DNA of 64,000 bases from Escherichia coli (GCF_044324875.1 NZ_CP172185.1); one strand, 5' to 3'. Counted from the stretch's first letter, positions 41,822 to 52,497 are shown. The notes: generated by a model not told the origin, from the sequence alone. Numbers and translations are program-made.

Positions 41822-43477
41822 TCAAAAACCGCTGTAGCCAAAGTTACGCTGACCTGATGCTTTAGTGTCGAGCTTCGTCAGATAATCCAGACGTGCCAAT
41901 AAGCGCTGATACTGCTCAGGGAAATCAGGATCGTTAATATCCAGGATGTAACGTCCATTAGTAGGGAAATGAACTAATCCCTGGTGATCTTCCAGTTCCA
42001 ACCCTAAGGCGCTGTACCAGGCTCCGGTAATTAACCCTCTCAGGGTGTCAGAGCGCTCATAGTCTCCCAGGTGGTAATAGGCGTCTTTGTTAAACAACAG
42101 GCAGACGTGATAATGACATTTAAAGGACTGTGTATATTCTTTCGCCCAGATAATACAAACCGACGTTGCGTAGGTGCGTTTGCCTTATTGTTTTTTACGG
42201 TGTTGATCTGCATTAATTTTCGCATTCAGCGAGTTACGGAAACGAGATATCTCTCCGGGGATCAGGTTAGGGAAACAGGTAATGGTATCCCCGTTGTCAA
42301 TCACAGGAGGGTAATGGAGATCCACCCGTATTGCTGTTATTCTGGAAGTATTTTTAATATTCGTATTGATAGTTCTCAGAGATATATCACACTCTAGATA
42401 TTTTAATTAAGTATCAGTTCGATATCGGCATATTGTACACTACCTCAGGTAGATGATGAGATCAGATACAGGGATCAACTGACGGTGAACGCAGTCCCCA
42501 CATTTTATCCAGGGCTTACTGCATATTCCCAACAGCCATTCGTTAGCCAGGTAGACGAATACCCTTTCCGCTGGTTTTGCTTTCCCATCGAAGGGCCCAT
42601 ACATCATCACGCCCGCGAAACAACCGACGAAATAATGCAACCTTCTCGTCGGTGGATAATACGAAAACGCACTGCACAGGGCTCTGCGGTTTACGTCACC
42701 ATTCAATCCCATGAGCTTCAAGTTATGCTTGCCCTTAGTGCAGCTAATTCATCACTGTCAGATTTATGAACTATATGCGTTATCTGTACCTGCCCCACGG
42801 GGTACCACCACAGAAGATGAAGTGTCATAGTCCCCTGCGCTGAGGACAAAGCTACGCATTAACGACAAATCCACGCGATAACTTACGATAGTTCGGACAT
42901 AAGCCCCCATAATTCAGTTATGTCGTGGTCGGCCGCGGTTACTTTTTTCGGGAAGCCTGCTACGGCCCAGAATAATACCGTGTTCTTTCTGATCCTGTTT
43001 AGCCAGATAGCTAAGGGCGTAACGTAAGTCGTCTACCGCAGACTTATCACTATAGTGAATCACGTGATCGATACGCACCGGGTATTTATCTTTAGCCCGG
43101 CACAGATGAAAATAAGCCTCCCCTTCCGTGATCCGCCTCCAGATATCTCCCAGTTGCCTGGATATCTGATAAGAGTTCTTGTGACGTTGTCCATCCAGAT
43201 AGCCGATAAAATGAATATGAAGCCCTTTGTCTGGTGTATATTCCATAACCCAGTAATATCCTGCCAACATCGTCTGGGTTTCGCTAAGTAAACGGTATAT
43301 TTCCATACACATACTGTGCTTACAGGAATGCCCGAAACTGGGCGTGTCTTTCCTGTAGGCAAAATCAATTCTGAAAGGTAACAGTTTAGAAAAACGTTGA
43401 AACAATCCCTCCATGTGTTCATTCACATCTTTCAGAATCGCGAAATTCATTTCGTAATTGGGATTGGCATTATACAT
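41822..43477 (-). pseudogene. YagK/YfjJ-like (inovirus Gp2-family) prophage gene, decayed into several frames
   Basis: Same-strand ORFs 42914..43477, 42440..42721, 42040..42225, 41822..42097 with dispersed similarity to the family; assignment from memory only. Confidence 0.4.
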
Positions 43478-44610
43478 TTTATAGTCCTTAATTTATAAAA
43501 CTCACAGGAAGAGGAAATTATGTAAATACTGAGAGAACATAAACGCCGTACCACGGCATTAATAAACGAAGTAAACCAGCAGCACAGACACCCTGATAAA
43601 ACTGTTTTGTATTACCGCATCGCTGTAACAAGGTAATACTTCAGAATTCAGTGAGGCTCTCTTAAACAGAGGACCAGTAAGAATTACAATGGTAAAAACA
43701 CACCTCATAGAATTGAGTTTAAGGAAGCACCATTCACTCAACCTGACATTCACAAAAGTCAGTACCAGGTGGCCTCAGGTAACATCGCTATTAATATTAT
43801 CCTGCCATTAAGTAAAAACAGAAACTCTGTGAGGAAGTCTCACCAATATTTGACCAGTAGCATAAAGAATAACGATATGAGAGATACGCCCACACCAGAG
43901 ATGATTACCCCATACAAAAAGATAATATTTATTAATACCACCGCACCTCAATAGACTAATAACACACTAATAGCGTTTTGGTACACACTTAACACTAACT
44001 ATGCACCAGACACATACTCAGGATTAACATTCCCAACATTTATGGTACTCTCAAAGAGTATAATTCACCACACAGGTAAACTCTCACACCAGTAGTATGG
44101 AGATAATGCTGTACACATACTTACAGAGTAAAGTGTACAGTTAGCATACAGTGGCGAGCAGACATTACAACATAAAGACATAAGATAGCATAATAAGAAC
44201 ATAACAAAACTCCCACTAATAATACTAATTAACCTTAATTCTTTTTTGAACAGGAAATCAACATTGCTCCAGACCTCTTCAGGTCATACACTTTTGTATT
44301 GGATGTTCAATGTGTACTTCTGCACAAACAAAAAAATAAAACCCGCAAAATAAAATATCAGCCCCAAAAATACAGCGTGAAACACCACGTTATGGATATG
44401 TTTTCATATCACCAGAAGCATATTTCACACATACAATACAGAAACAATTCATCATATAATCAGGGTTACTGTTCACTCCTCTCGGTTATCCGCGAGACGA
44501 TAAAACATGACACTAATCACAAAAACGAGAGATAGTATTTGCGAAATATAAACAACATAAAAATCAATGCGTTGCGATTTTTTATTTTTTCAGACATGCA
44601 TGCCCCCTCT

Positions 44611-44645
44611 GCTATTGTTGCTAGCCGGCTAGCAACAATAGCAGG
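44611..44645. repeat. Perfect 17-bp inverted repeat CTGCTATTGTTGCTAGC-C-GCTAGCAACAATAGCAG
   Basis: Read directly; about 40 bp downstream of the 607-aa ORF stop; no flanking U-run, so not a canonical terminator. Confidence 0.6.
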
Positions 44646-44686
44646 GATATACAAACATCGGATGCCAAAAACACGTTCCGATAATA

Positions 44687-50396: not shown

Positions 50397-50412
50397 CAGA
50401 AGGAACAACAGT

Positions 50413-51168
50413 ATGAGTGATAACCTGTTAAACAAACTGACCCAACTGAAACTCCCGGCGATGGCCGGGAGCCTGATACGGCAGCGGGAAACGCCTCAGA
50501 CCTACGACGAACTGTCGTTCGAGGAAAGGCTGACGCTGCTGGTTGATGACGAGCTTCTGAGCAGGGAAAACAGCCGTGTGGCACGGTTGAGAAAAAATGC
50601 CGGCCTGAAATACCAGGCAACACCGGAAGGGCTGCGCTATCCGGCCTCAAGAGGTCTGCGGGCTGAACAGATGAGAGAACTGCTGAACGGCCACTACATA
50701 ACCCACAGGAAAAACCTGCTGATAACCGGTCCGACAGGATGTGGCAAGAGCTGGATAGCCAATGCGCTGGGCGAACAGGCATGTCGACAGAAACACAGCG
50801 TCCGGTACTGTAGAACCGGGCGATTACTGGAACAACTGGCTCAGGGACGTGTTGATGGCAGCTGGCTGAAATATCTGAAACAGTTGCAAAAAATACAGGT
50901 TCTAATCCTGGACGATCTGGGGCTGGAACAGTTAAGTAACGCCCAGTGTAATGACCTTCTGGAGCTCATAGAGGATCGTTACGGACAAAGCAGCACGATA
51001 GTGGTAAGCCAGTTCCCGGTAGATAAATGGCATGGTCTGATGGAGAACCCAACAACAGCAGATGCCATCCTGGACAGACTGGTACATAACTCACACCGAG
51101 TGGTCCTTCAGGGAGAGTCACTGAGGAAAAATCCCCCGGTAGTGGAAAGCAGCGAAAAAACGCGTTAA
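50413..51168 (+). CDS. istB: IS21-family ATP-binding helper IstB
   Basis: Start at ATG 50413 (MSDNLLNKLTQLKLPAMAG); Walker A GPTGCGKSW, Walker B VLILDDLG. Confidence 0.8.
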   Translation: MSDNLLNKLTQLKLPAMAGSLIRQRETPQTYDELSFEERLTLLVDDELLSRENSRVARLRKNAGLKYQATPEGLRYPASRGLRAEQMRELLNGHYITHRKNLLITGPTGCGKSWIANALGEQACRQKHSVRYCRTGRLLEQLAQGRVDGSWLKYLKQLQKIQVLILDDLGLEQLSNAQCNDLLELIEDRYGQSSTIVVSQFPVDKWHGLMENPTTADAILDRLVHNSHRVVLQGESLRKNPPVVESSEKTR

Positions 51169-51288
51169 AAAGCGGTAGAAAAAGTTAAGTTCCCGGTTGA
51201 TCGAATGGATGCGAATCGCTGATCGGACTTCGATGCCAATCCGTGATCGAATAGAGCGGAATACGCAGCAAATCTGTGAGATGTGATT

Positions 51289-52497
51289 TCATCGCTGGTT
51301 TTCCATAATCTGAGACATCACATAATCCGCCCATGCCTGCATCATCGGTATACGCTGATCCAGCAGATCAGTCCGGTGATATGCCGCCTCAACCTTATTT
51401 TTCAGCGTATGGGCAAGCGCCCTTTCCGCCAAATCCCGCGAATATCCCTGTTCGCTACACCAGTCCCTGAATGTTGAACGAAAACCATGTGCTGTAGCCA
51501 CTCGTCCGGGTATATCACTGATGGCCTTCTTTTTACGCAGAAAACTCGTCAACACCATATCTGAAAGGATCTGCTGCTTTCTGGGAGAAGGAAACACCAG
51601 TTCGTCATGCAGACCACGTATATTTTCCAGAACGTGAATGGCCTGTCGGGATAAAGGAACACGATGCTGTATCCTGGCTTTCATTCTTTCTGCGGGTATC
51701 GTCCATATCCGCTTATGAAAATCAATTTCAGCCCAGCGCATTCCCCTTGCTTCGCCCGAGCGGGTTGCTGTCAGTATCACCATTAATAACAGTGCCCGGG
51801 TAACATTATAAGGTTCATCTGTATACACACTGGTCGCCACAAAAAGCGGTAACTGCCTCCAGGGCATTGCCGGCTGGTGTTCATCACGTCCTCTTGATTG
51901 CTGTGGAAGCAAATGATCAACCACATCAACAGGATTCGCCACACAAAAACCATGCGCCCAGCCCCACTGCATAACAACATGAATGCGCTGTTTAACCCGG
52001 CTTGCCGTTTCTGACAAGGTTAACCAGACTGGACGCAGTGTTTCTGCCACGTCCGCAGCCGTAATCGAATCCAGCGTTTTTGCTCCCAGTTGAGGAAACG
52101 CGTAATTCTCAAGCGTCGATAACCACTGCCTTACATGCTTTGGATTTTCCCATCCAGGAGACAGTTCTGCATGTACACGCCTGGCTGCATCGGCAAATGT
52201 TGGGATAACAACTTTTTCAGCTTCAGCCTTTTTAATCTCCAGAGGATCATCACCTGCAGCAAGTTGCTCTCGCATTATCCGGGCAGTACGTGCAGCTTCA
52301 GCAATACTGACCTCAGGATAAGTTCCCAATCCAGCATTACGCCTTTTTTGTGTCACCGGACTTACATAACGAAAAACCCATTTACCCCTCCCCTTTACTG
52401 AAGAAGGATGAAGAGTCAGTCCTGTAATTCCCCCATGGGGCAATGGTTTGTCATCAGGTTTGATATGCCTTGCTTTAGTATCCGTCAATACTGCCAT
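51289..52497 (-). CDS. Tyrosine recombinase, P4-type phage integrase
   Basis: 402-aa ORF with the P4-type N-terminal (LTDTKARHIKP) and C-terminal catalytic region (HGFRSTFRDW...AHTLKNKVEAAYHRTD). Confidence 0.8.
   Translation of the reverse strand: MAVLTDTKARHIKPDDKPLPHGGITGLTLHPSSVKGRGKWVFRYVSPVTQKRRNAGLGTYPEVSIAEAARTARIMREQLAAGDDPLEIKKAEAEKVVIPTFADAARRVHAELSPGWENPKHVRQWLSTLENYAFPQLGAKTLDSITAADVAETLRPVWLTLSETASRVKQRIHVVMQWGWAHGFCVANPVDVVDHLLPQQSRGRDEHQPAMPWRQLPLFVATSVYTDEPYNVTRALLLMVILTATRSGEARGMRWAEIDFHKRIWTIPAERMKARIQHRVPLSRQAIHVLENIRGLHDELVFPSPRKQQILSDMVLTSFLRKKKAISDIPGRVATAHGFRSTFRDWCSEQGYSRDLAERALAHTLKNKVEAAYHRTDLLDQRIPMMQAWADYVMSQIMENQR

Follow-up and report, generated by a model that had tools for sequence, protein, structure and literature searches.

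The segment 41822-52497 of a 64,000-nucleotide stretch of Escherichia coli DNA (GCF_044324875.1, NZ_CP172185.1; the whole stretch is called the window here, and coordinates are counted from its first letter) is very probably the integrase-proximal backbone, with genes of the integration, excision and replication type, of a large composite genomic island at the 3' end of the tRNA-Ser gene serX, belonging to the family of the SRL PAI, O157 OI-43/48 and PAI-CFT073-serX. The island spans window positions 1 to 52671, i.e. more than 52 kb, with its left end beyond the window. A preliminary description made from the sequence alone had seen in this segment the skeleton of a decayed element of the CP4-57 type. 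Its degraded genes notwithstanding, it is no self-contained skeleton but the integrase end of the serX island, and since this island runs more than 52 kb leftward from the integrase end there is no small CP4-57-like relic here. The island type is already known and this copy is an ordinary one, apart from a conserved gene of unknown function that encodes a protein of 607 amino acids (aa).

The junction with the chromosome is marked by the last 14 nucleotides of serX, CCCCCTCACCGCCA, which form the attachment (att) core 160 bp upstream of the start of int, at 52658-52671 and thus outside the range to which the element had originally been confined. The reverse complement of this core, TGGCGGTGAGGGGG, is the 14-bp direct repeat published for OI-43/48 and the SRL PAI (PMC3064760). 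To its right lie the native serX-downstream repeats as found in K-12, followed by a DUF2726 gene, phoH and efeB. The body of serX is missing, ARAGORN finding no tRNA in the 64-kb window, and a pattern search of the window with up to one mismatch allowed gave no further att core in the 52.6 kb leftward, so that a small element delimited by a second core inside the window can be ruled out. In the same direction E. coli strain 135 has an island collinear with the window and extending over more than 50 kb, with raf, scr and lld genes, insertion sequence (IS) elements and Ag43. The gene adjoining the core, int, encodes an intact P4-type tyrosine integrase in which the R...HxxR...H...Y residues are invariant in the integrase alignment, and is transcribed inward, with the att core behind it. 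Its product is 34% identical to IntA of K-12 and 97% identical to the integrase of the O157 island (94.6% at the nucleotide level), and of 5426 complete E. coli genomes 1267, or about a quarter, contain a homologue that is 90% or more identical in nucleotide sequence, CFT073 being among them. The features of the backbone and its borders, from the junction inward, are:

52658-52671, plus strand: att core of the right junction, the last 14 nucleotides of tRNA-Ser serX (match to the K-12 serX 3' end, and downstream repeats)
52658-52938, plus strand: RtT-like 181-bp repeat, 1.5 copies after serX (Rfam RtT match, self-BLAST, BLAST against K-12, pattern search)
52498-52657, minus strand: int upstream region, with two direct repeats GTATGCCA at 52519-52538
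51289-52497, minus strand: int, intact P4-type tyrosine integrase of 402 aa (NCBIfam integrase domain 2.9e-54, PHROG_1)
48629-51267, plus strand: ISSso4 (IS21 family), complete, 2639 bp (istA, istB, multiple terminal repeats, TG...CA ends)
46875-48421, plus strand: DUF3987 (YfjI-like) pseudogene in the position of SRL PAI orf2; open reading frames (ORFs) 46875-47339 and 47336-48421 are the two halves of one gene
46599-46859, plus strand: AlpA-family regulator/excision factor, intact, in the position of SRL PAI rox (Pfam PF05930, Phage_AlpA, 8.6e-19)
46511-46598, no strand: divergent intergenic region of 88 bp between alpA and the 607-aa gene (motif conserved in distant relatives, alignment of six loci)
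44687-46510, minus strand: gene of the 607-aa protein, intact, in the position of SRL PAI orf4 and divergent from alpA (all-helical, TPR-like)
43478-44686, no strand: AT-rich non-coding stretch of 1.2 kb (stops in all six frames)
42914-43477, minus strand: 187-aa 'inovirus-type Gp2' protein gene, intact, in the position of SRL PAI orf5 (PGAP annotation of the strain 135 orthologue)
about 42449-42722, minus strand: remnant of an AEP-primase/SF2-helicase gene (tblastn with the O157 protein; residues 24-116 recognisable)
41822-42385, minus strand: YagK/YfjJ pseudogene in the position of SRL PAI orf6 (internal TAA at 42185-42187; ~30 N-terminal residues missing)
41507-41794, minus strand: second YagK/YfjJ-domain gene, first ~96 codons only, cut at the end of IS2 (tblastn, and blastn against ETEC1706, L023)
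40176-41506, plus strand: IS2, full length at 1331 bp, with the transposase frame disrupted (terminal sequences; orfB frame broken in the ORF list)

Read inward from int, the genes of the window (int, DUF3987, alpA, the 607-aa gene, Gp2 and a YfjJ pseudogene) follow the order of orf1 to orf6 at the left end of the SRL PAI, listed as int, YfjI/DUF3987, rox, an ORF with 'no similarity', a Gp2 family member and a frameshifted YfjJ (PMC6980539, Table 2). The two islands also share the tRNA gene, the 14-bp core and the large composite form. They differ in cargo, the SRL PAI carrying the resistance locus, fec and an aspartate racemase and the window raf/scr, lldP, a type I restriction-modification (R-M) system and many IS elements, and furthermore the orf2 equivalent is frameshifted and ISSso4 inserted in the window; their likeness is known by order and annotation. 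The O157:H7 islands OI-43/OI-48 (tellurite/urease/iha) and PAI-CFT073-serX have the same site and core, with 97% identity in Int, 93-97% in the 187-aa Gp2 protein and 80% in AlpA, but in them int converges with a 605-aa gene from which alpA diverges, followed by DUF3987, Gp2 and primase genes in the direction of int, a CP4-57-like order; they also hold an IS1 remnant, and the primase/helicase gene of O157 is intact. The serX island of HUSEC2011 (E. coli O104:H4), in contrast, has the layout and orientation of the window (Int 97%, DUF3987 83%, AlpA 77%, a 611-aa protein 72% and Gp2 96% identical) but with all backbone genes whole, including a 786-aa primase/helicase, and with no ISSso4, DUF3987 frameshift or YagK pseudogenes here, which makes it the intact island best suited as a reference for such backbones. 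Relatives measure 62-113 kb (PMC7545054), and site-specific recombination between the direct repeats excises both OI-43/48 and the SRL PAI (PMC3064760, PMC7545054).

Several points count against this placement, or against reading too much from it. The left junction, with an intact serX and a second core, lies outside the window, so that the full size and the excisability of this copy are presumptive. The window int is ~94.6% identical to the O157 allele in nucleotide sequence, whilst the O157 allele is in turn reported to be 99% identical to the int of the SRL PAI, and the match to orf1-orf6 rests on published gene order and annotation rather than on an alignment with AF326777. The activity of this int and of this AlpA allele is inferred, and it is solely by analogy that DUF3987, Gp2 and the primase are given their roles in such islands.

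The alternative developed from the preliminary description, namely a small CP4-57-type element decayed to a skeleton, with the orientation of int resulting from a rearrangement linked to the IS21-family insertion, is highly improbable. The likeness itself is real, for CP4-57 (intA, yfjH, alpA, yfjI and yfjJ in K-12) has homologous families, with identities of 34% for Int, 49% for AlpA, 25% for YfjI and 44% for YfjJ (a pseudogene here), all of them significant, as well as a gene of unknown function divergent from alpA; several window genes are broken; and alpA, yfjI and yfjJ of CP4-57 are co-directional with intA, so that the layout of the window differs. The closest model is nonetheless the SRL PAI and OI-43/48, on the evidence of the core, the 97% identical integrase and the gene order. 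CP4-57 lies at ssrA with its integrase beside an intact RNA gene, whereas the site here is serX and int stands beside a partial tRNA copy, opposite in sense to the tRNA; YfjH has no sequence match to the 607-aa protein and is unrelated to it; and the island is more than 52 kb long. That int (minus strand) and alpA with DUF3987 (plus strand) are convergent was correctly described, but this is a symptom neither of decay nor of the IS. The same convergent layout is found without ISSso4 in strain 135, HUSEC2011 and ETEC1706, and these identically oriented IS-free islands already contradict the idea of a CP4-57 relic. Further afield, eight independent loci, five retrieved through homologues of the 600-aa protein (25-33% identity) and three through alignment of DUF3987 against viral contigs, share an arrangement in which alpA, DUF3987 and a YagK gene run in one direction and the 600-aa gene in the other, ~100 bp apart, and int is convergent with the alpA operon in all seven in which it was captured, often with a small ORF after it. 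Since the IS-free E. coli islands and the distant relatives share it, the convergent orientation is, on comparative sequence evidence, the native layout of this backbone type, caused by neither IS nor decay. ISSso4 is indeed located just after int, as had been stated, 16 bp past its stop and 207 bp past that of DUF3987, in the 223-bp spacer of the convergent genes, and breaks no ORF. Because its 5-bp target duplication GCAAA (48624-48628 and 51268-51272) is intact and its flanks are contiguous in strain 135, which lacks it at this position, it is a simple insertion without inversion; an IS-caused inversion is ruled out by the intact duplication together with the IS-free relatives.

A second alternative holds that the segment joins two neighbouring elements of unrelated origin, int and att being those of a serX island and the block of the 607-aa gene, alpA and DUF3987 coming from another element with no functional link to int. 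The comparisons that bear on it show at the least a mosaic. In O157 and CFT073 the flanks are nearly the same as in the window (Int 97%, Gp2 93-97%, with the primase after Gp2 in O157), whereas the cassette formed by the 600-aa gene and, divergent from it, alpA-DUF3987 lies on the opposite strand and is only 30% identical in the 600-aa protein and 26% in DUF3987, with 80% in AlpA; homology breaks at about 44262 and at about 51303, the 3' end of int. Against HUSEC2011, the number of synonymous substitutions per site (dS) is 0.18 for int and Gp2 and 0.35-0.91 for DUF3987, alpA and the 607-aa gene. Because of these breakpoints and the contrast in dS inside and outside the cassette, the backbone is a mosaic whose central cassette is exchanged and can lie either way round, with two very divergent E. 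coli forms between conserved flanks. The integrases of the distant relatives are either of the serX type (72-73% identical), beside a tRNA-like 3' end, or IntA-like, beside an ssrA 3' fragment; in three IMG/VR contigs (L014-L016) the same type of cassette, with YagK, accompanies an IntA-like integrase beside a ~45-nucleotide ssrA 3' fragment, so that two or more integrase and att specificities go with this cassette. All of this would suit two elements, but wherever int was captured in a distant relative a convergent integrase directly adjoins the cassette, a point in favour of a functional unit whose parts are exchanged and not of a chance neighbourhood, and the SRL PAI integrase is reportedly served by a factor of the AlpA family, Rox (PMC3014918); we consider an unrelated pair improbable. 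Nor do we give much credence to the backbone being what is left of a PICI-, PICMI- or P4-like phage satellite, once mobilised by a helper phage and enlarged later by its cargo. It is true that int, alpA and DUF3987 (here a pseudogene) are the defining trio of the PICMI satellites of Vibrionaceae, that three of the relatives come from a viral-contig collection and that Gp2-like and AEP-primase/helicase genes accompany the trio. PICMIs, however, are of ~6 kb, lie next to fis, are packaged by a virulent helper phage and lack the 600-aa gene, Gp2, AEP and large cargo; among the local ORFs, PHROG scans revealed no gene for packaging, capsid remodelling or a small terminase; the lengths, over 52 kb for this island and 62-113 kb for its relatives, exceed satellite size; and the SRL PAI and OI-43/48 excise spontaneously with no known helper (PMC7545054, PMC3064760).

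In relatives of this serX island, recombination of the 14-bp cores by the integrase and promotion of excision by an AlpA-family factor have been shown (PMC3064760, PMC7545054, PMC3014918), and a like course would be expected here. The P4-type integrase would recombine the 14-bp core common to the serX 3' end and the island, with int, transcribed inward, adjoining the junction that retains the chromosomal serX-downstream flank. The AlpA-family protein, in the position of Rox, for which the role of excision factor in the SRL PAI is cited (PMC3014918), would promote excision. DUF3987, the Gp2-type protein and, in intact relatives, the AEP-primase/helicase would by analogy be replication-type genes; PICMI satellites need int and alpA in order to excise, and once excised they depend on their DUF3987 'primase' to replicate (PMC10803314). 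ISSso4 would merely lengthen the spacer between the convergent int and DUF3987 genes.

Intact in this copy are the right att core and four genes, int, alpA, the 607-aa gene and the 187-aa Gp2 gene, the last of which the preliminary description had not counted as such; DUF3987, the primase and two YagK/YfjJ genes are broken. Because int, alpA and the right core are intact, recombination of this copy is plausible if a left core exists, whereas, with DUF3987 frameshifted and the primase lost, an excised form would be expected to replicate poorly. Judged by its published ORF table, the excision-competent SRL PAI appears to have most of this 'decay' in common (the YfjJ frameshift, and no primase between Gp2 and the YfjJ pseudogene), and the decay would therefore be old and not disabling. 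The lesions specific to this lineage are only a 19-bp deletion in DUF3987 and ISSso4.

A component of the cassette to which, to our knowledge, no assignment has been given since 2001, as orf4 of the SRL PAI, is the 607-aa protein. As a single sequence it gave no match in Pfam, NCBIfam, PADLOC, PHROGs or PDB sequences, the PDB searches returning noise only, and nothing in PADLOC, Pfam, NCBIfam or PHROGs, with either the single sequence or all 15 family members, pointed to a defence gene, an idea that was rejected. A HMMER scan of 1.84 billion representatives yielded only 44 matches, ~15 of them full-length at 22-33% identity. The AlphaFold (AF2) model built on the resulting alignment is confident and all-helical (pLDDT 83.6, pTM 0.81); in a Foldseek search of AFDB50 it resembled only uncharacterised proteins of Enterobacterales, Aeromonas and Burkholderia, and it matched nothing among the BFVD viral structures. 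On this model an enzymatic fold cannot be claimed. The nearest, albeit weak, structural neighbours of the TPR-like fold include sensors of the Rap, NprR and PlcR type, which control other mobile elements.

The 600-aa family diverges much faster than its neighbours, with 22-40% identity where DUF3987 retains 65-70% and Int 87%. Compared with the HUSEC2011 orthologue, dN/dS of the 607-aa gene is 0.18, which indicates purifying selection and rules out the positive selection that was considered; the higher divergence in this pair is due to an older cassette (dS of 0.91, as against 0.18 for int) and not to adaptive change. The gene keeps its place throughout, ~100 bp from alpA and divergent from it, both in the two cassette types of E. 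coli and in each of the eight independent distant loci. One possibility, which we put forward tentatively and with more doubt than conviction, is that the ~600-aa protein may be a core control component of these integrative elements and not cargo, either a sensor or repressor (Stl- or Rap-like) gating alpA-driven excision and replication or an immunity determinant, and that orf4 together with alpA-DUF3987 would form a control cassette that can be exchanged and is free in orientation. Of the hypotheses on its function, the most attractive is that it may act as a regulator or sensor for the alpA switch.

The intergenic region between the two divergent genes contains, just upstream of the start of the 600-aa gene (46511-46560), a partly self-complementary motif, GTCCCC..AAAACGGAAACCAAC (also given as GTCCCC..ACGGAAACCAAC), that is kept in loci L006-L013 although their 600-aa proteins are only about 30% identical; a regulatory role of this 46511-46598 region may be inferred from such conservation. 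The AlpA protein that is encoded beside it is 49% identical to K-12 AlpA and 80% to the homologue of the O157 island. We also observed one and the same IS1 remnant in O157 (L019, 8099-8791) and CFT073 (L020, 8097-8790); in both it occupies the divergent control region of the cassette, where it separates the 605-aa gene exactly from alpA. Direct repeats lie between the start of int and the att core, where GTATGCCA reads TGGCATAC on the int strand and the same repeats occur in three copies upstream of the 72-73% identical integrase genes of L008 and L012; these are possible arm-type or regulator binding sites.

The positions and families given in the preliminary description for int, AlpA, DUF3987, YagK/YfjJ, the 607-aa ORF and the IS21-family element were all borne out by the ORF listing and family scans, and the DUF3987 and YagK/YfjJ assignments held in homology searches. 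The uninterrupted 521-aa DUF3987 orthologue of strain 135 scores 2.5e-63 with PF13148; the window gene also matches PHROG 2373 ('DNA helicase') and is 25% identical to K-12 YfjI at 2e-44. The frameshift that had been reported in this gene is caused by the 19-bp deletion, which follows position 47334, between CGT microhomologies, and is the sole difference from the strain 135 orthologue; its exact 154-aa product was seen in one contig, common to two samples. No YagK/YfjJ gene lies downstream of DUF3987 at the window locus. YagK/YfjJ genes are broken here, as described, yet the pieces are not those of one gene but two different pseudogenes: that at 41822-42385 is 65% identical to K-12 YagK (3.5e-84) and 44% to YfjJ, and the second, cut by IS2, lacks 453 bp relative to ETEC1706. 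The 187-aa Gp2 protein shows no differences from the strain 135 orthologue annotated as intact and is 93-97% identical to those of O157 and CFT073, its Pfam matches being weak (REP_ORF2-G2P 0.005, YagK_YfjJ_C 0.04). The full primase/helicase gene, intact in O157 and HUSEC2011, encodes 786 aa with matches to Pfam AEP-TOTE (2.4e-98), ResIII and Helicase_C, and is labelled a pseudogene by PGAP in strain 135.

Upstream of the Gp2-type gene, ~800 bp of the non-coding stretch (43478-44261) are 82-90% identical to the O157 (L019) and CFT073 (L020) islands, though the adjacent cassette has diverged, and make it a candidate origin or regulatory region for the Gp2 and primase genes. A hidden gene or RNA in 43478-44686 was considered and rejected, all six frames being full of stops and Rfam giving nothing credible. 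At 44609-44644, 43 bp beyond the stop codon of the 607-aa gene, there is a perfect 36-bp palindrome with 18-nucleotide arms and no loop, which HUSEC2011 retains with another arm sequence, both arms being altered together by compensatory changes. It has no U-tract and is therefore no textbook terminator.

On the chromosomal side every copy of the 181-bp RtT-like repeat begins with the att core, the second core lying at 52839-52852. The spare att cores in the serX-downstream repeats, two in the window and four in K-12, could permit alternative recombination end points. The DUF2726 gene (52946-53632), between these repeats and phoH, stands where K-12 has pgaABCD-dgcT-ycdU, the flank itself thus being strain-variable, and an Rfam match to Ysr251 (191 bits) is found on the plus strand at 54224-54417, antisense to the 3' part of phoH.

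Of the mobile DNA in the island, ISSso4 is 100% identical over 2639 bp to copies annotated as ISSso4 in other contexts and differs from the known copies only in its insertion site, which was not found occupied by it in the 5426 complete E. coli genomes; its IS21 transposase (1.1e-84) and IstB (2.2e-76) score above the NCBIfam cut-off, and five terminal repeats on the left are matched by inverted copies on the right. IS2, a near-identical copy of which is annotated as a pseudogene in strain 135, forms the left limit of the backbone in this copy. Farther left, a 1.31-kb repeat with a 296-aa ORF is present in full at 645-1955, 10290-11600, 17605-18914 and 19527-20837 and in part at 26959-27754, the copies being at least 99.5% identical; from its length it is presumably an IS629-like IS. 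Such repeats are substrates for internal deletions or inversions such as those reported for OI-48. They bracket and interrupt type I R-M-like genes at 13387-24009 (HsdR of 1005 aa, a 387-aa ORF and an HsdM-like protein of 819 aa), a segment that is absent from the otherwise collinear island of strain 135, and a 364-aa ORF for a group II intron reverse transcriptase/maturase (25208-26302) lies in the IS-rich part of the island.

The segment is thus one more degraded copy of a common E. coli backbone, for which work in Shigella and O157 has dealt with both the integrase and the excision factor. Mobility cannot be read from its 'decay', and the island might yet be lost, along with its genes for sugar utilisation and restriction. 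A swappable, invertible cassette around an uncharacterised 600-aa family would offer a tractable lead on how widespread pathogenicity and resistance islands decide to excise.

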